DNA of 8,513 nucleotides from a plasmid. The notes under the pieces were generated by a model. That model searched no databases. It was not told the DNA's origin and saw only the letters and a list, made by a program, of their open reading frames with translations. This document shows positions 1 through 8,513 of this stretch, in pieces. The stretch is taken from the NCBI RefSeq assembly GCF_055900595.2, contig NZ_JBVWEU010000006.1, one strand, 5' to 3'. The number at the start of each line of letters is the position of its first letter. Position 1 is the first letter of the stretch. The translations under genes were made by a program, and so were the position numbers.

Positions 1-166
1 ATGCACGAACCCCCCGTTCAGCCCGACCGCTGCGCCTTATCCGGTAACTATCGTCTTGAGTCCAACCCGGTAAGACACGACAAAGCGCCACTGGCAGCAG
101 CCACTGGTAACTGATTTAGAGGAGTTGGTCTTGAAGTTATGAGCCGGTTAAGGCTAAACTGAAAGA

Positions 167-272
167 ACGATTTTGGTTACTGCGCTCCTCTAACTAGCCA
201 GTTACCTTGGTTCATAGAGCCGCAAACTCTTAGAACCTAAGAAAAACCGCCCCGCAAAGGCGGTTTTTCTTT
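167..272 (+). ncRNA. RNAI: RNAI antisense copy-number control RNA (approximate ends)
   Basis: Aligns with pMB1 RNAI (conserved ctgcgctc...gccagttacctt core) and ends in hairpin ccgcc...ggcgg followed by tttttcttttt at 247..274. Ends set by alignment from memory, not by transcript data. Confidence 0.6.
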
Positions 273-796
273 TTCAAGAAGAGTACTAGGTCACACTTGA
301 TGACGTCAAGACGGTTTTCGCTAAAGAGGAACAACCACGCCACCTTCATTTCTTTGAAAAAAGAGGATAATTCCAAAATAGTTGTAGTCACCTCAATCAA
401 AGTAAATTCATCATTAATATCAAATAAATACCACAAACCCAAGTGAGGGTAACCTTCGTCCTTTATATCAATACATTTATCTGGTTTGTTAACTTGCTCG
501 ATCACTTCCGCTGCATCAAATGAGAGATATATGGCAGGTTTGGTTTTCCCTACAGGGATTCTTTTATGTACATCCCTTACCATTCCTTCATAATAATCTT
601 TATTTGAATGATAAATAGACACATAATCCTCTGAAATTTCCTCCCTAAGATAAAAACACTTAATAGTTGTAGCGCCAAACTCATCTTTATGATCTTCCAT
701 AACATAACGCCATAAATATGAATTATTTGCTCTGCCCGTAAATGCATTAATACAAGGGATTGATTTGAGGTTATTTAAAGTTGATAACACAGTCAT
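230..796 (-). CDS. Hypothetical protein, 188 aa, third gene of AT-rich operon; no family recognised
   Basis: Open frame in the ORF track (190 aa from GTG at 800..802). I place the start at ATG 794..796, which overlaps the upstream gene's TGA stop (796..798) as TGATG, with GGAG about 10 nt upstream. The stop TAA (230..232) lies inside the RNAI region. AT-rich, protein-like composition. Confidence 0.7.
   Translation of the reverse strand: MTVLSTLNNLKSIPCINAFTGRANNSYLWRYVMEDHKDEFGATTIKCFYLREEISEDYVSIYHSNKDYYEGMVRDVHKRIPVGKTKPAIYLSFDAAEVIEQVNKPDKCIDIKDEGYPHLGLWYLFDINDEFTLIEVTTTILELSSFFKEMKVAWLFLFSENRLDVIKCDLVLFLKKKNRLCGAVFLRF
283..309 (-). promoter_or_regulatory. Putative RNAII (primer) promoter
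   Basis: Minus strand reads TTGACG (304..309), 15-nt spacer, TAGTAC (283..288), placed just beyond the RNAI 3-prime end as in ColE1. Spacing is short; weak call. Confidence 0.35.
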
Positions 797-1440
797 CACC
801 ACTCCATCATTTTAAATAATGATTTGATAGCAATGGAGTTATCAAGGCTATCGCCAATATATGCCCTACCTGTAACCTTAACCACTCCAGAAACTTTTCT
901 AACAAAGGAAAAAATAATCTCGTTATTTGTTTTCACTATTAAATTTAGCGTGCCTTTGCTTTTCTTAGTTTGTTTATATATAAGCCCAAAACACTCTGAT
1001 TTTTTATCAAAGTAAATCTGAGCGTCTTTTTTTGCAGCAAGTTCAGGGGCATACCTAATCAACTGAACAATAGCCTGCAAAGATGGTTCTAGGTCACCAG
1101 TGCAGAACTCGTATTCTCTATTATAAACAGAAATGGCACTTCTTATTTTTTTAAAAAACAATAAGAATTCACCTGATAATTCTAATGATTCGTAATGTTT
1201 TAAAATTGACTCATAACCGTCACCAGAGCAATCTAATGTTTTAACATCATCATTCCAAGACTCCCAAACAGAATTCTCAACAACAACAAATGCTCGACCC
1301 AAAACTTTAAACAAATCCGGATCTCTTAAATCATTTAGCTCTAACTTATTATAATCAGAAACATCATAACGAACACCGAGATCAATGCTATCATTAGTAA
1401 TATAATAATCTTCACTATCGCAGTGGTTAATGTATTTCAT
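796..1440 (-). CDS. Hypothetical protein, 214 aa, second gene of AT-rich operon; no family recognised
   Basis: ORF track gives 796..1458 from a TTG. The first ATG is 1438..1440, 1 nt after the upstream gene's TAG stop (1442..1444), with GGTGA SD-like sequence 5-9 nt upstream. Stop overlaps the next gene's start. Confidence 0.7.
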   Translation of the reverse strand: MKYINHCDSEDYYITNDSIDLGVRYDVSDYNKLELNDLRDPDLFKVLGRAFVVVENSVWESWNDDVKTLDCSGDGYESILKHYESLELSGEFLLFFKKIRSAISVYNREYEFCTGDLEPSLQAIVQLIRYAPELAAKKDAQIYFDKKSECFGLIYKQTKKSKGTLNLIVKTNNEIIFSFVRKVSGVVKVTGRAYIGDSLDNSIAIKSLFKMMEW

Positions 1441-1441
1441 A

Positions 1442-1666
1442 CTAATCACCTGACTCAACGAATTTATTCAATCCATCGATAAGGTTCTTTGCATGTTTTT
1501 TGGTTAGAGCTATGGAATAAAAAACCCTTCCTGATTCTTTTTCAGGAAAGTCCACTAACTCTAAAAAACAAATATCTTCAGCTATCCCAACTCTTAGAGC
1601 CATCGGGAATACAGGTTCATTTTTTCTTGGTGTTACTTTTCTTTCTAAAGAATCTTTATTGCTCAT
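1442..1666 (-). CDS. Hypothetical small protein, 74 aa, first gene of AT-rich operon
   Basis: ORF with ATG at 1664..1666 preceded by a GGGG-containing SD-like sequence, tightly packed against the next gene, and preceded by an AT-rich promoter-like region. Confidence 0.6.
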   Translation of the reverse strand: MSNKDSLERKVTPRKNEPVFPMALRVGIAEDICFLELVDFPEKESGRVFYSIALTKKHAKNLIDGLNKFVESGD

Positions 1667-1790
1667 TATAATACCCCGATAGAAATAAATTTAAGTTTAG
1701 AACATAAAAAATAATACCATAAAACAACATCTTTCATCCACAATGCTCATTTAACATTACATTGGTCACTTTATGGAATTTTGTGGCCAT
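1667..1790 (-). promoter_or_regulatory. AT-rich upstream region of the three-gene operon; putative promoter and possible Rcd-like transcript region
   Basis: Strongly AT-rich with several TTGnnn / TAtnnT candidate hexamers on the minus strand. The motif atttaacat occurs twice (1749..1757, 1792..1800). Lies directly downstream, in minus-strand sense, of the cer-like core. Confidence 0.35.
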
Positions 1791-1791
1791 G

Positions 1792-2030
1792 ATTTAACAT
1801 AACACCAAAATTGTACGCACCGCTAAAACGGCCTCAGGGCGTTTCTGACGGGAAACCGGTAAAATAGGCAACAAACCACCCGAAAACCCGCCAGAAACGC
1901 GCAGGCTCTGTTTTTACGGCATGCATGAGTATGCACGCAAGTGCATAGCGCGAAAATTCACGCCATTCAGCCAGGGTAAGTCCTGTTTCCGGCGTTCTTC
2001 CCATCCGAAAACGGTGAACGGGGACGCAAT
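1792..2030 (-). other. cer: cer-like XerCD multimer-resolution site (core 1792..1821 plus putative accessory sequences to about 2030)
   Basis: Reverse complement of 1792..1821 is GGTGCGTACAA-ttttggtg-TTATGTTAAAT. Against ColE1 cer as I recall it (GGTGCGTACAA-ttaaggga-TTATGGTAAAT) the XerC arm is 11/11, the XerD arm 10/11, with an 8-bp spacer. A palindrome-rich segment (atgcatgagtatgcacgcaagtgcata, 1921..1947) lies about 100 bp into the accessory side, where an ArgR box would be expected. Confidence 0.6.
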
Positions 2031-2159
2031 TTATTGCGTGGCCGTGAAGCGTTGCCGGCGCAGCCGGAAAACCGGTTTTCAGCACGTTCAGGAATCGGGT
2101 TCGTCGACGGCCGGCAATCACGTTATGGCAAGTCGCCGGACGACTCACCACACGATTCA

Positions 2160-2340
2160 CCGGCGACTCTTCACTAGAGTCGTACCCAGAGTCGTCACGT
2201 CTAAAAAACAACCAAACGGGGAGTCGGGTCTAGAGTCGGGTCGTTGTTAACTTATTGTTTTTATAGTCCTGAGTCGTTACCGACTCTATGACGACTCGCC
2301 GGGGACTCTATGACGAGTCGTCATAGAGTCGGATCTGTAT
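2160..2340. repeat. Cluster of GAGTCG/CGACTC repeats including a 13-bp perfect inverted repeat and a third direct copy; function unknown
   Basis: GAGTCG or its complement occurs at least ten times in about 180 bp. gactctatgacga-g-tcgtcatagagtc (2310..2336) is a 13-bp perfect palindrome around one central base, and cgactctatgacgactcg (2288..2305) is a further direct copy. Confidence 0.6.
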
Positions 2341-2484
2341 AAATAAAATTAAAAAAACGAAATTTATAGAACGTAAACTACTGATATAAAATACAAATCT
2401 GCAAAATTTTAATTTTGCGTGGGGTGTGGATATTTTTAGTGGTGAGGAGCGTTCAGAGATCTGGCGATTTTTGGGAAGGTTCAG

Positions 2485-2489
2485 GAACT
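2485..2489. repeat. Target-site duplication, left copy (GAACT)
   Basis: The 5 bp immediately outside IRL are identical to the 5 bp immediately outside IRR (7440..7444). Confidence 0.85.
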
Positions 2490-2527
2490 GGGGTCTGACG
2501 CTCAGTGGAACGAAAACTCACGTTAAG
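2490..2527 (+). repeat. Tn3-family IRL, 38 bp
   Basis: Exact match to the Tn3 38-bp terminal repeat; the tnpA stop codon (2523..2525) lies inside it, as in Tn3. Confidence 0.95.
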
Positions 2528-5500
2528 CAACGTTTTCTGCCTCTGACGCCTCTTTTAATGGTCTCAGATGTCCTTTGGTCACCAGTTCTGCCAGCGTGAA
2601 GGAATAATGGCCGAGCATATTGATATGTCCGTGGCAAAGCGGGGAGAGGCGTGCGATATCTTCATCATTCAGTGTTTCACCCTGCGCCCGGAGATGATCC
2701 AGGGCTGCCTGCATATAAATAGTGTTCCATAACACGACGGCGTTAGTGACCAGCCCCAGTGTGCCCAGTTGATCTTCCTGACCGTCGGTATATCGTTTTC
2801 TTATCTCACCTTTTTGACCGTGACAGATGGCTCTGGCAACGGCATGGCGACTTTCTCCCCGATTAAGCTGGGTCAGAATGCGCCGGCGGTAATCTTCATC
2901 ATCAATATAATTAAGCAGATACAGCGTTTTGTTGATGCGCCCCACTTCAATGATTGCCTGAGTCAGTCCGGAAGGACGTTCACTTTTCAGCAATGAACGG
3001 ACCAGCACTGAAACCTGTACTTTGCCCAGCTTCAGGGAGCCAGCGGTCCGGATCATTTCGTCCCACTGAAGGACTATTTTTCGGGGATCTGATTGCCCTC
3101 TGGCAATATCATTCAGCACGCCATAGTCGGCATCATGGTCCATTCGCCAGAAAACCGAAGCACCGGCATCAGCCAGGCGTGGAGAAAACTGGTATCCCAG
3201 CAGCCAGAAAAGGCCAAAGACAAGTTCGCTGGCACCTGCTGTATCGGTCATAATTTCGGTTGGATTCAGCCCGGTCTCCTGTTCCAGAAGACCTTCCAGC
3301 ACAAAGATAGAGTCCCTCAGCGTCCCCGGTATAACGATGCCATGAAAGCCGGAATACTGATCGGACACAAAGTTGTACCAGGTGATCCCTCTGTTATTAC
3401 CAAAGTATTTGCGGTTCGGTCCGGCATTGATTGTTCTGACTGGCGTAACAAAGCGCATTCCATCTGCAGATGCCACTTCTCCTCCACCCCATATCTGTGC
3501 CAGTGGCAGCGTTGCCTGAAAATCAACCAGTCTGGCATTAGCGCTGGTGATAGTTTCAGCCCGCAGATAGTTCGCTTTTGTCCAGTTCAGCCGGTGTCGG
3601 GTCAGTGCAGGAACATTTGATCTGATCAGTGGTTCCAGACCGATATTGCAGGCTTCAGCCATCAGCACGGCGCTGATGCTGACGGGCAGATCATCAACTC
3701 TGGCACTGGCTTCACTAGCATGGAAAAACTCATCAGCAAATCCGGTATGGGCGTTAATTTCGAGCAGCAACTCCGTTAAATCCACCGGAGGGAGTAGATC
3801 ACTGATCATTTTGCTCAGTCGTTTCAGACTGTCCGGCTCATCAAGACTGGCGAGGGGAGAAATTGTCAACCGGGGCTTCGGGCCAGAAACATCGAGTTCG
3901 ACAGCCTCATTTTCGCAAAGACGTGCAGCAACCTGTCTGTAACGACTATCAAGCTGATGACCCAGAGATTTTATTGCTTCCTGCGGGTCTGTCGGGTGCC
4001 CCAAAGAACGATAAACCTTAATCCGGTTTGCCTGCCAGTCAGCACCCTGTAGTAATCTTGCACGAGGATCTCCCCACCGGTTACTGCCGGTAACGTAGAC
4101 ATCCCTCCGCCTCAGACTATCCTGCAGTTTACTGAGAAAGCAGAGCGTGTATCCCCTGCGGGTGATATGTTTTTCCTTGTTAATCACCAGCCGTTTCCAT
4201 GACCGACTGATAATTTCCGTTGGTGCGTCGTCAAAAAACTGCCGCCGTGAGCTGAACTCCCGGCTGAGGTAGTCACAGGCATTCAGAGTGGTAACCCCGG
4301 CAGGTGCGGATGAAAATTTAACGGTATTCAGCAGATGGGGCAGGAAACGACGAACGCGCCCGTACTGCTCCACCATTTCTTCATGAAAATTATCGTCTGA
4401 GGGCCGGGCAATTTCACGGACAAGCGTGATGATTTCAGCCAGCTTTTGCCTTGGGATGTAGCTGAACACCTCAGCACGAATCGATTCGTCCGGTGTTTCT
4501 TCTTTCAGCAGGTACGAACATGCGCTGGCGAGCGCCAATGCAGATTTATCCAGATCCTTCAGCGAGCGGAGCCGTTTTTTCTGCCCAATCTTTCTGGCGT
4601 CACGGATGATAACGGCCAGCATGGCGTCCAGAACGTCCAATGCATCATCCAGCGCCAGCGTTTCCCATGCAAGGACAAAGGCAACCAGAACCGCCATCCT
4701 TTTCTGCGGTGACATCCTGGCAATATTGAACACCGAAGTCATACCAGCATAACGTGCGAGATTTTTCAGGCGCACAGCCGGGAGTGTACTCAGGTTTTCA
4801 GCATGCAGGCCAAAATCGTTCAGAGTTTTCCAGCGTTCAATTGCTTCATTAAACGCCGGACCACTGATGGTCACAGGGCCCTTTTTCAGTGATTCCAGTA
4901 AAGACAGGCGGCTGCAATCAGTTGGCCCCAGCAGCATCTCCAGCTGTGAACGCTGTTCGGCTGACGGTATCAGTGCCAGTTTGTTCCACAGGCGCAACGT
5001 CGCCTTTTCCCTTACCTCTGAAATCAACCGGGTCAGCGTAGTGGCTCCGGGGAGAATAATACGATGTTGCATAAGCCACCCTGTCGCCAGATCGAAAAGC
5101 AGGCCAGGACGTTCGTTGCTTATCCAGCTCCGGGTATATAAAAGACGGGTAAGGCGAAATGTCCAGGGCCAGGCAAATTCACGATACTGATAGTGCTGAC
5201 GTATCAGCGCTGCATGCTCACGGCGGGTATTTTCCCTCTGACCGTATTCTGCAAGAACGGTGATATCACGAATCCCGAGCTGTCTGGCGGTAAAATGCCG
5301 GACGCCGGAAGGAATATGATTCATATCGGTGAGGAAGGTGCCCAGAAAACGGACACATCCAATTTGCAGGGCAATGCCCAGACGGTTGTGATCACCTCTG
5401 CTTTTTCCGATAAATTCCTTGTCTGCTTCATCAAGGTGAAAATATCGTGCCAGCTGAAGCTCATCCGGTTCACCGGTGAATCTGCCATAGCTTTCAGTCT

Positions 5501-5528
5501 GCTCAGTGGTCAGAAAGTCAACGGGCAT
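2523..5528 (-). CDS. tnpA: Tn3-family transposase TnpA, 1001 aa
   Basis: The ORF-track frame (2523..5687) has an internal Met giving MPVDFLTTEQTESYGRF..., which I recognise as the Tn3 TnpA N-terminus. Start set at ATG 5526..5528; the 53 upstream in-frame codons run into res and are not coding. Confidence 0.92.
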   Translation of the reverse strand: MPVDFLTTEQTESYGRFTGEPDELQLARYFHLDEADKEFIGKSRGDHNRLGIALQIGCVRFLGTFLTDMNHIPSGVRHFTARQLGIRDITVLAEYGQRENTRREHAALIRQHYQYREFAWPWTFRLTRLLYTRSWISNERPGLLFDLATGWLMQHRIILPGATTLTRLISEVREKATLRLWNKLALIPSAEQRSQLEMLLGPTDCSRLSLLESLKKGPVTISGPAFNEAIERWKTLNDFGLHAENLSTLPAVRLKNLARYAGMTSVFNIARMSPQKRMAVLVAFVLAWETLALDDALDVLDAMLAVIIRDARKIGQKKRLRSLKDLDKSALALASACSYLLKEETPDESIRAEVFSYIPRQKLAEIITLVREIARPSDDNFHEEMVEQYGRVRRFLPHLLNTVKFSSAPAGVTTLNACDYLSREFSSRRQFFDDAPTEIISRSWKRLVINKEKHITRRGYTLCFLSKLQDSLRRRDVYVTGSNRWGDPRARLLQGADWQANRIKVYRSLGHPTDPQEAIKSLGHQLDSRYRQVAARLCENEAVELDVSGPKPRLTISPLASLDEPDSLKRLSKMISDLLPPVDLTELLLEINAHTGFADEFFHASEASARVDDLPVSISAVLMAEACNIGLEPLIRSNVPALTRHRLNWTKANYLRAETITSANARLVDFQATLPLAQIWGGGEVASADGMRFVTPVRTINAGPNRKYFGNNRGITWYNFVSDQYSGFHGIVIPGTLRDSIFVLEGLLEQETGLNPTEIMTDTAGASELVFGLFWLLGYQFSPRLADAGASVFWRMDHDADYGVLNDIARGQSDPRKIVLQWDEMIRTAGSLKLGKVQVSVLVRSLLKSERPSGLTQAIIEVGRINKTLYLLNYIDDEDYRRRILTQLNRGESRHAVARAICHGQKGEIRKRYTDGQEDQLGTLGLVTNAVVLWNTIYMQAALDHLRAQGETLNDEDIARLSPLCHGHINMLGHYSFTLAELVTKGHLRPLKEASEAENVA

Positions 5529-6249
<721 letters not shown>

Positions 6250-6361
6250 TACGCCTATTTTTATAGGTTAATGTCATGATAATAATGGTTTCTTAGACGT
6301 CAGGTGGCACTTTTCGGGGAAATGTGCGCGGAACCCCTATTTGTTTATTTTTCTAAATACA

Positions 6362-6390
6362 TTCAAATATGTATCCGCTCATGAGACAAT
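6362..6390 (+). promoter_or_regulatory. bla P3 promoter
   Basis: TTCAAA (6362..6367), 17-bp spacer, GACAAT (6385..6390), then RBS aaggaagag before the ATG, as in native Tn3. Confidence 0.8.
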
Positions 6391-6419
6391 AACCCTGGTA
6401 AATGCTTCAATAATATTGA

Positions 6420-7292
<873 letters not shown>

Positions 7293-7352
7293 CTGTCAGA
7301 CCAAGTTTACTCATATATACTTTAGATTGATTTAAAACTTCATTTTTAATTT

Positions 7353-7379
7353 AAAAGGATCTAGGTGAAGATCCTTTTT
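7353..7379 (+). terminator. Hairpin plus T-run downstream of bla
   Basis: aaaaggatc-taggtgaa-gatccttttt inverted repeat followed by T residues. Confidence 0.5.
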
Positions 7380-7401
7380 GATAATCTCATGACCAAAATC
7401 C

Positions 7402-7439
7402 CTTAACGTGAGTTTTCGTTCCACTGAGCGTCAGACCCC
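7402..7439 (-). repeat. Tn3-family IRR, 38 bp
   Basis: Exact reverse complement of the IRL sequence. Confidence 0.95.
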
Positions 7440-7444
7440 GAACT
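7440..7444. repeat. Target-site duplication, right copy (GAACT)
   Basis: Identical to 2485..2489. Confidence 0.85.
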
Positions 7445-7484
7445 CCCCGGAATGGCCGGAGAGGAAAACTGAAGCATGACGGGG

Positions 7485-7907
7485 TCAGGATTTCTTCCAG
7501 AATTTCCACCACGGAGAATGAACCTGTGGAGAGGGTTCGAGCTTGTGTTCCAGAAGCTGCATAGCCTGGCGAAGAGAATCGATATGTTCATCACGAGCTT
7601 TAACAGCCCCTTTAAGACCATCGTTTTCAGCTTCAAGCAAAGCAATTTTATGCTGTAAATCATGTAAACCAGAGATGTTAACCCCTGTAGCGCCTGCGTC
7701 ACCTTTTACATCATGTTTTACAGTGTCGCCCCCACCATAAAGCGAGCCAAAAACCCTAATAAGCTCTGATGTATCAACAACTTTAGTATTTTTCCCATGC
7801 TTTACAACAGAGGTGTAACTTAGTTTCCCACTGTTAATCATCTTGTAAATTGTGGGGCGACTAACCTTAACAAGCCGAGCCGCTTCACTAATAGACACTC
7901 TGGCCAT
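7485..7907 (-). CDS. HTH DNA-binding protein with C-terminal coiled coil, 140 aa; function unknown
   Basis: N-terminus MARVSISEAARLVKVSRPTIYKMINSGKL is a typical helix-turn-helix; the C-terminal heptad-like stretch (LQHKIALLEAENDGLKGAVKARDEHIDSLRQAMQLLEHKL) suggests a dimerisation coil. Its ATG (7905..7907) overlaps the rop stop as TGATG. Confidence 0.75.
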   Translation of the reverse strand: MARVSISEAARLVKVSRPTIYKMINSGKLSYTSVVKHGKNTKVVDTSELIRVFGSLYGGGDTVKHDVKGDAGATGVNISGLHDLQHKIALLEAENDGLKGAVKARDEHIDSLRQAMQLLEHKLEPSPQVHSPWWKFWKKS

Positions 7908-8098
7908 CAGTTTCCATCCTGTAATTCATCCAGTCCCGAAGACAGTGTACGGAAAAGATGCTCCGCATCATCGTGGAGTTTCTCACAAAGGTCGGCCTCT
8001 ACATCAAGATCAAGCTCGTTAAGCTTCTCCAGCAGGAGCAGAGACTGATTCTGGATGAATTTAGCCATGTTCAGCGCTGTTTTCTGTTGTTTCGTCAT
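7907..8098 (-). CDS. rop: Rop/Rom RNA one modulator, 63 aa
   Basis: MTKQQKTALNMAKFIQNQSLLLLEKLNELDLDVEADLCEKLHDDAEHLFRTLSSGLDELQDGN aligns along its whole length with pBR322 Rop as I recall it (MTKQEKTALNMARFIRSQTLTLLEKLNELDADEQADICESLHDHADELYRS...). Confidence 0.9.
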   Translation of the reverse strand: MTKQQKTALNMAKFIQNQSLLLLEKLNELDLDVEADLCEKLHDDAEHLFRTLSSGLDELQDGN

Positions 8099-8099
8099 A

Positions 8100-8513
<414 letters not shown>

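Follow-up and report, generated by a model that had tools for sequence, protein, structure and literature searches.

The minus strand at positions 2054..1792 of the window very probably holds an Xer multimer resolution site of the cer family, which depends on ArgR and PepA. The window, that is, the whole stretch of 8,513 nucleotides that was analyzed, is a small ColE1-type plasmid of Klebsiella pneumoniae. The identification is based on sequence anatomy, homology, spacing, orientation and RNA covariation; protein binding, strand exchange and a stability phenotype at this site are what we infer from the family. The site is a new, previously unannotated member of a very common and known family. 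Work on cer-type sites goes back to the 1980s, the related site mwr has been studied in detail, and the current understanding of Xer recombination is left unchallenged. Its importance is mainly for annotation: small plasmids of a very common Klebsiella and Enterobacterales family have it as a landmark of their backbone. The coordinates of its features are given in Table 1.

Table 1. Positions in the window of the resolution site, its putative elements and RNAI
Feature	Position	Strand	Basis or remark
RNAI	168-271	plus	
Whole cer/mwr-type multimer resolution site	2054..1792	minus	30-bp core and about 233 bp of accessory sequence
Distal accessory sequence, presumed PepA-wrapping DNA	2054..1938	minus	90% identity to mwr
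ARG-box (putative ArgR-binding) homologue, CGTGCATACTCATGCATG	1937..1920	minus	column-for-column alignment with the cer ARG box
Position homologous to ColE1 Pcer, GTGCAT-15-AAAAAC or GTGCAT-14-TAAAAA (one-base shift)	1910..1936	minus	degenerate
Rcd-like stem-loop, arms 1900..1887 and 1852..1839	1900..1839	minus	fold and covariation
Phased T-tracts, centres 1896, 1885, 1874, 1863 and 1854	1854..1896	minus	overlap the hairpin
Conserved 15-mer GGGTGGTTTGTTGCC, apical part of the hairpin	1881..1867	minus	15/15 in ColE1, ColK and mwr
Conserved GCCGTTTTAGC junction	1822..1832	minus	just upstream of the XerC arm, nine-site panel alignment
T-run	1828..1825	minus	within the GCCGTTTTAGC junction
XerC-binding arm, GGTGCGTACAA	1821..1811	minus	11/11 to ColE1 cer
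Central (crossover) region, TTTTGGTG	1810..1803	minus	8 bp, same length as cer
XerD-binding arm, TTATGTTAAAT	1802..1792	minus	10/11 to the ColE1 cer arm

Core of the site

An Xer core consists of 11-bp XerC and XerD arms with a central region of 6-8 bp between them (PMC2699498, PMC5357621). The window was searched with the arms of ColE1 cer and a free 8-bp spacer, which gave a single match, on the minus strand at 1792-1821, with one mismatch in total. This core (minus 1821..1792) reads GGTGCGTACAA-TTTTGGTG-TTATGTTAAAT and is the only Xer core in the window. The pattern was matched by none of 200 dinucleotide shuffles, and in a positive control it recovered the authentic cer site of ColE1 (NC_001371, 3909-3938), GGTGCGTACAA-TTAAGGGA-TTATGGTAAAT. 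These data agreed in every point with the sequence-only reading, which had described a close match to the cer core with 11 of 11 positions in the XerC arm, 10 of 11 in the XerD arm and a spacer of 8 bp. The shared XerC arm lies within a 22-bp run that is identical in the two plasmids, whereas the central regions, although equal in length, differ in sequence (TTAAGGGA in cer, TTTTGGTG in the window).

The core is dif-like with 11-bp arms, a feature that links it to psi and to chromosomal dif. Its XerD arm, TTATGTTAAAT, is identical to the XerD arm of E. coli dif, a site that is not known to have accessory sequences. The psi site of pSC101, which depends on ArcA and PepA, differs from the site studied here in its central region (6 bp against 8 bp) and has accessory sequences without similarity; blastn found no match between the psi locus and the block 2054..1792. 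The central region of dif is likewise 6 bp (PMC5357621).

Extent and homology of the site

The closest characterized relative of the block is mwr (pJHCMW1, NC_003486, 3081-3342), with 89% identity over the whole 263 bp; blastn aligned 264 bp at 89.4% identity (E=3e-97). The mwr site is the ArgR/PepA-dependent Xer site of the K. pneumoniae plasmid pJHCMW1 (PMC2699498), a plasmid that belongs to the same replicon cluster as the window and shows the same orientation of the site relative to RNAI and the same Rcd-like hairpin. The block also matched ColE1 cer (E=7e-17), CloDF13 parB (E=7e-17 over 112 bp, the ARG box included) and the site of ColK (E=9e-16 over 160 bp). The parB and ColK sites have the same architecture, with similarity across the ARG box, the hairpin and the core. 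However, their accessory sequences are more divergent from those of the window, and in CloDF13 the XerC arm is a different one, GGTACCGATAA, and the central region is 6 bp long.

The sequence-only reading had proposed an alignment to cer- and psi-type sites, and this alignment showed a match well outside the 11-bp arm. Between the ARG box and the XerC arm the site was 94% identical to mwr and 68% identical to ColE1 cer (NC_001371, about 3700-3938), where the maximum among shuffled sequences compared with ColE1 was 56.5%. In the distal accessory sequence the identity to mwr was 90%, and that to ColE1 cer, 57.5%, was little higher than the best value for shuffled sequences (55%). Besides the XerC arm, the likeness to cer includes the length of the central region, the XerD arm, the position of the ARG box, the T-tracts and the conserved 15-mer. 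The name "cer-like", used in the sequence-only reading, therefore held for the family and for the core, but the closest relative is mwr, so that the site is better described as mwr-type accessory DNA with a cer-type core.

The edges of the block were sharp. The alignment to mwr stopped exactly at 1792 and 2054, and in many of the 501 plasmid records that matched 1776-1850 the match started exactly at 1792. A panel of nine sites was aligned (cer, ColK, parB, mwr and sites from plasmids of K. oxytoca, Enterobacter mori, E. coli and Raoultella); the ARG box, T-tracts, hairpin and core were in register, and the flanking sequences diverged immediately past the XerD arm. The homology edge at 1792 is the boundary expected for a functional module that ends at the XerD arm. 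Of the extent first proposed, 1792-2030, the start was retained, but the conserved block reaches 2054 and not 2030. Cer-type sites have some 180 bp of accessory DNA next to the XerC arm, and in the window the DNA on this side, about 233 bp, was homologous to characterized sites. The accessory side had been placed at the higher plus-strand coordinates, and this was correct, as the site reads on the minus strand.

In the window, as in ColE1 and pJHCMW1, RNAI and the site are on opposite strands. Since RNAI of the window is on the plus strand, RNAII, and hence replication, runs on the minus strand; RNAII thus enters the site from the ArgR side and runs towards the core. An invariant orientation of the site relative to RNAII and oriV has been reported for ColE1-like plasmids (PMC2831885).

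ARG box and T-tracts

A palindrome-rich candidate ArgR box had been suggested about 100 bp into the accessory side. The ARG-box homologue CGTGCATACTCATGCATG was found at that place, with 98 bp between it and the XerC arm and with the half-sites TGCAT and ATGCA 4 bp apart. The start of the box is 116 bp from the arm, compared with 115 bp in ColE1, and the ColE1 reference is without one G that is present in all its relatives. The E. coli ArgR consensus is TNTGAATWWWWATTCANW. The box matched this consensus at 10 of 16 positions, a score that 1543 of 2000 shuffles (77%) also reached and that is not above chance when taken alone; the ARG box of ColE1 cer matched at 12 of 16. An equally good match to the consensus was found elsewhere in the accessory DNA of the window. 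The proposed assignment of the box is based on positional homology, on palindromic TGCAT/ATGCA half-sites with ARG-box geometry and on the conservation of the half-sites throughout the family. Because the consensus score is common in shuffled sequence, ArgR binding could be weak, as at mwr, whose ARG box has been termed "less than ideal" (PMC2699498).

The phased T-tracts between the ARG box and the core were spaced by 11.5, 10.5, 11.5 and 8.5 bp, and three of them coincided with tracts of ColE1 cer. Phased A-T tracts are a described feature of the family (PMC2831885).

Mosaic structure of the site

The similarity to mwr broke off about 12 bp upstream of the XerC arm, and from there the site was nearly perfectly matched to cer. 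The sequence CGTTTTAGCGGTGCGTACAATT is identical in the window and ColE1, whereas mwr has GGCCTCTCAGGC-GGTGCACGCAA at this place. The core of mwr is GGTGCACGCAA-CAGATG-TTATGGTAAAT, with a 6-bp central region in place of 8 bp, and the arms of the window differ from it at 3 of 11 positions (XerC) and at one position (XerD). Judged from these alignments, the site is a mosaic in which accessory DNA of the mwr type is joined to an XerC arm of the cer type and a spacer of 8 bp.

The poor, osmolarity-dependent resolution by mwr has been traced by mapping to two parts of the site: the core, in which the central region is the probable determinant, and the ArgR-binding site (PMC2699498). In "mwrT", a variant made in the laboratory, a C in the ArgR-binding site is replaced by T (PMC7399989). 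In the 18-bp ARG box the sole difference between the window and mwr is a T in place of C at box position 3. Because this is the single difference within the box, the T is probably the same nucleotide as the mwrT substitution. In sequence, then, the site resembles cer at both determinants of mwr inefficiency, the ARG box and the core with its central region. From this resemblance we would predict efficient and osmolarity-independent resolution of dimers. The site is a natural counterpart to the laboratory hybrids that have been used to explain the poor resolution by mwr.

The variation of the family was surveyed by a metagenome scan with a gapped pattern running from the hairpin loop to the XerD arm, which together with plasmid loci gave 100 unique sites. 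These contained 17 XerC arms and 40 central regions, with spacers of 6 bp in 26 sites, 7 bp in 39 and 8 bp in 35. The XerC arm GGTGCGTACAA was the commonest (45 of the 100 sites). The XerD arm TTATGTTAAAT was present in 21 of the 100 sites, in a search that accepted no base but G or T at the one variable position of this arm. The 29 sites with accessory DNA at least 93% identical to that of the window had 6 XerC arms and 17 central regions, and the cer core was found with four accessory types. The occurrence of many cores with one accessory type, and of several accessory types with the cer core, indicates that the modules have been reshuffled. Among the 100 sampled unique sites, the central region TTTTGGTG occurred only in that of the window; in PLSDB, at least 95 records matched the 75-bp core region at 99% identity or more.

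Rcd-like hairpin in the accessory DNA

The minus strand at 1911..1826 was predicted to fold into a single long hairpin (MFE -39.2 kcal/mol, z = -4.0), and all members of the panel folded alike despite their different stem sequences; the stem of the window differs from that of ColE1 cer through compensatory changes. RNAalifold predicted 19 pairs in a family alignment of 32 sequences, and compensatory double changes were present in 11 of them. In this alignment 95.7% of the cells were paired, compared with 33-64% when the partners were slid, and none of 500 shuffles reached the observed values by any of five measures. G-U pairs, which are C-A mismatches on the other strand, made up about 16% of the cells, and the plus strand folded 7 kcal/mol worse. 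Together, the covariation, the G-U pairs and the poorer fold of the plus strand argue for selection on a minus-strand RNA.

Rcd of ColE1 has been described as an RNA of about 70 nt that is encoded by cer, forms a single stem-loop with a conserved 15-nt sequence and is transcribed from Pcer with its 15-bp spacer (PMC4393325, PMC5935869). It delays the division of ColE1-carrying cells while dimers persist. The window likewise has a single long stem-loop with a conserved 15-nt sequence, on the strand that reads towards the core, and GGGTGGTTTGTTGCC is presumably the 15-nt sequence described in PMC5935869. No Rfam family matched the region, even at E<=1. When 298 Gb of genome contigs were scanned with the 15-mer, 6 of the 120 loci listed were real cer-like sites and nearly all the others were chance matches; alone, the 15-mer is too short a pattern for 298 Gb.

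The promoter was sought by a custom scan, as a generic promoter scanner allows only spacers of 16-18 bp. On the site strand of ColE1 the only sigma-70-like candidate that scored at least 8 of 12 was TTGCAT-15-TAAAAT, which overlaps the ARG box and which we read as the Pcer hexamers. These hexamers are not conserved in the window, where the same scan of the site strand found no sigma-70-like promoter of at least 8 of 12 upstream of the hairpin. The degenerate state is common to other mwr-type sites, and the E. mori site keeps TAAAAT. A ColE1-type Pcer is thus not recognizable in the window, and since the scan found no promoter at this threshold, the putative Rcd part may be silent.

A joint reading of the central regions and the hairpin is speculative, and we think it rather unlikely to hold. 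The central regions would be under diversifying selection that prevents Xer recombination between co-resident ColE1-type plasmids, and the mwr-type subfamily, this site included, may keep the Rcd hairpin under RNA-level selection despite the loss of a ColE1-type Pcer. If this were true, selection on the hairpin without Pcer would mean that the hairpin is expressed in another way or has another role.

Plasmid context

The segment 1700-2350 was 100% identical to several PLSDB records, which included plasmids of 8514 bp, such as pS471M_P4 (NZ_CP079659), and a family of cryptic plasmids of 3559 bp. The 8.5-kb form consists of the 3559-bp plasmid and a 4950-bp Tn3-family blaTEM-1 transposon at 2490-7439, which is flanked by 38-bp inverted repeats and carries a tnpR resolvase gene and a res site. 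In many isolates of the 3559-bp progenitor, which is free of the transposon, the site is 100% identical, and PLSDB records of exactly twice and three times the progenitor length carry two and three copies of the site. The region was matched by 2168 PLSDB records, and in none of the best 25 of them was any feature annotated there.

The whole small plasmid is also contained in a 170-kb IncC plasmid. In this cointegrate, 2490-8513 and 1-4730 of the window are contiguous around two copies of the transposon.

Proposed mechanism and alternative explanations

Homology between cer and mwr is high; both sites require ArgR and PepA, and at both the Xer reaction goes no further than the Holliday junction (PMC2699498). 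By analogy with these sites (PMC2699498, PMC5357621, PMC7399989, bioRxiv 10.64898/2026.02.23.706985), homologous recombination would produce a plasmid dimer, in which two directly repeated copies of the site would pair. ArgR would occupy the ARG box (1937..1920), and the accessory sequences of about 230 bp, helped by the phased T-tracts, would wrap around host PepA. This interwrapping would bring the two 30-bp cores into line and act as a topological filter that lets recombination proceed only within one molecule. With XerD on its arm (1802..1792), XerC at 1821..1811 would be licensed to exchange a single strand pair where the 8-bp central region begins or ends, and the resulting Holliday junction would be completed to monomers by host processes independent of Xer, as at cer and mwr. 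The same strand of the accessory DNA would also encode the Rcd-like hairpin RNA (1900..1839).

The only serious rival to this proposal is that the site is a decayed or inefficient member of the family, like mwr in standard medium or fpr, and that dimers of the 8.5-kb plasmid are mainly resolved by TnpR at res; we regard this as improbable. The window does hold tnpR within a complete Tn3-family element, which could resolve dimers by itself. Dimers of pJHCMW1 are reportedly resolved by its Tn3-family resolvase and res, and fpr is said to be a deficient natural site in the cer family (both in work cited by PMC7399989). In standard L broth, dimer resolution by the closest relative, mwr, is poor (PMC2699498), and the ARG box of the window is weak, with a consensus score of chance level. 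However, the T in this box and the central region of cer length make the site cer-like at both weak points of mwr (PMC2699498, PMC7399989), and its arms, spacing and hairpin are all intact. The unchanged site of the 3559-bp progenitor speaks against decay as well, since that plasmid is free of the transposon. The records of two and three progenitor lengths would fit inefficient resolution, but they could equally be artefacts of long-read assembly. We consider it very improbable that the main selected function of the region is not recombination but an Rcd-like regulatory RNA acting as a checkpoint of cell division or in an indole checkpoint. In its favour are the strong, strand-specific covariation of the hairpin and the invariance of the apical 15-mer, but conservation is just as high in the arms of the core and in the distance to the ARG box, and a ColE1-type Pcer was recognizable neither in the window nor in other mwr-type sites. 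Moreover, the two functions coexist in ColE1 without competing (PMC4393325), so that such an RNA would be more an addition to a resolution site than a rival to it.

The remaining two explanations are both extremely unlikely. The presence of the whole plasmid inside the 170-kb IncC plasmid would be consistent with a core that serves as an attachment site for Xer-mediated integration or cointegrate formation, in the manner of an IMEX, and not for resolution. However, the junctions of the cointegrate are the copies of the Tn3-family transposon and not the Xer core, and an Xer-mediated origin of the cointegrate was rejected for this reason. The window has only the one Xer core, and in the family full accessory sequences impose an intramolecular, resolution-only selectivity (bioRxiv 10.64898/2026.02.23.706985). 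The region could also be protein-coding, through the ORF at 1834..2211 on the minus strand or that at 1921..2250 on the plus strand, which run for 125 and 109 codons without a stop; among the closest mwr-type relatives the minus-strand frame is likewise uninterrupted. In contrast, it is interrupted by stop codons in the homologues from ColE1, ColK, CloDF13 and E. mori, and both ORFs span the homology breakpoint at 2054. Neither ORF had a Pfam match, and none of the 25 best records had a CDS annotated here. Substitutions between the minus-strand ORF and mwr were distributed 6:3:3 over codon positions 1:2:3, and they were evenly spread in comparison with more distant sites, without a bias to the third position. 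The two ORFs were rejected as genes on the Pfam, codon-position and stop-codon evidence, just as the sequence-only reading had dismissed them, and recognition of the resolution site removes both spurious ORFs.

Features around the Xer site

The hexamer GAGTCG occurred 11 times in the window when both strands were counted, and all 11 copies were packed into 190 bp at 2141-2331. The count expected across the whole window was 2.7, and a count of 11 was reached in none of 200 shuffles. Many of the copies were spaced 11-12 bp apart, and a perfect inverted repeat was located within the same GAGTCG-rich region (see table). The cluster looks like an iteron-like array, putatively protein-binding, that abuts the distal end of the cer/mwr-type dimer-resolution site. 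The K. oxytoca plasmid pKO_JKo3_4 also carried the GAGTCG array, as in the window, but pJHCMW1, the plasmid of the mwr site, was without it. The 140-aa HTH protein is a candidate binder of the array; against the NCBIfam model 'plasmid replication DNA-binding protein' this protein scored 57 bits, which was below the cutoff of 85.

The three hypothetical ORFs were on the same strand as the Xer core and downstream of it. Searches of Pfam, NCBIfam and PADLOC gave a significant match for none of the three, which leaves the cargo of a very common cryptic plasmid without a known function.

Coordinates of features outside the Xer site
Feature	Position	Strand	Remarks
Three close-set ORFs (~74, 214-220 and 158-190 aa)	230-1666	minus	annotated as hypothetical
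Perfect 19-bp inverted repeat	2280-2298 / 2314-2332		within GAGTCG-rich region
Tn3-family transposon, 4950 bp	2490-7439		tnpA, tnpR, blaTEM-1; 38-bp inverted repeats
HTH_17/excisionase-type DNA-binding protein, 140 aa	7485-7907	minus	adjoins rop

Transposon, cointegrate and multimer-length records

The resolvase of the transposon, together with its res site, is a second, Xer-independent route for resolving dimers of the 8.5-kb plasmid. The entire window plasmid was also found integrated at 4277-15031 of a 170-kb IncC plasmid (NZ_CP079618.1) from the same hospital collection. The insert was flanked by copies of the transposon, one complete and the other truncated by IS26, and this locus is a replicative cointegrate of the Tn3 type, by which the conjugative plasmid gains a ColE1 origin and an Xer site.

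Three PLSDB records had lengths near or equal to multiples of the 3559-bp progenitor, the transposon-free cryptic plasmid. CP128762.1 (7118 bp) was exactly twice and NZ_CP139788.1 (10677 bp) exactly three times its length, with two and three copies of the site, respectively, and NZ_CP140478.1 (10688 bp) was near three times its length, also with three copies. These records could be true multimers or artefacts of long-read assembly.

Module shuffling and reference plasmids

The core and accessory modules of cer-like sites are shuffled across the family (loci L131-L250 of the survey), in which near-identical accessory sequences were paired with many different XerC arms and with many central regions, which were 6, 7 or 8 bp long. 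Two cer-like sites were present on each of several contigs from metagenomes (L162, L193 and L200-L203); in L162 and L201, where both cores were read, the two cores on the contig differed.

At about 3838-3850 the ColE1 reference (NC_001371) reads GCGATCGCGCAG, while all close relatives read GCGATCGCGGCAG. This 1-nt difference is located in the 5' arm of the ColE1 Rcd stem, the hairpin RNA encoded within the accessory DNA, and is possibly an error of the old sequence. A second exact XerD-arm-like sequence, TTATGGTAAAT, was present away from the known site in both pJHCMW1 (about 450-485, preceded by GGATG) and CloDF13 (about 4393, preceded by GACG).
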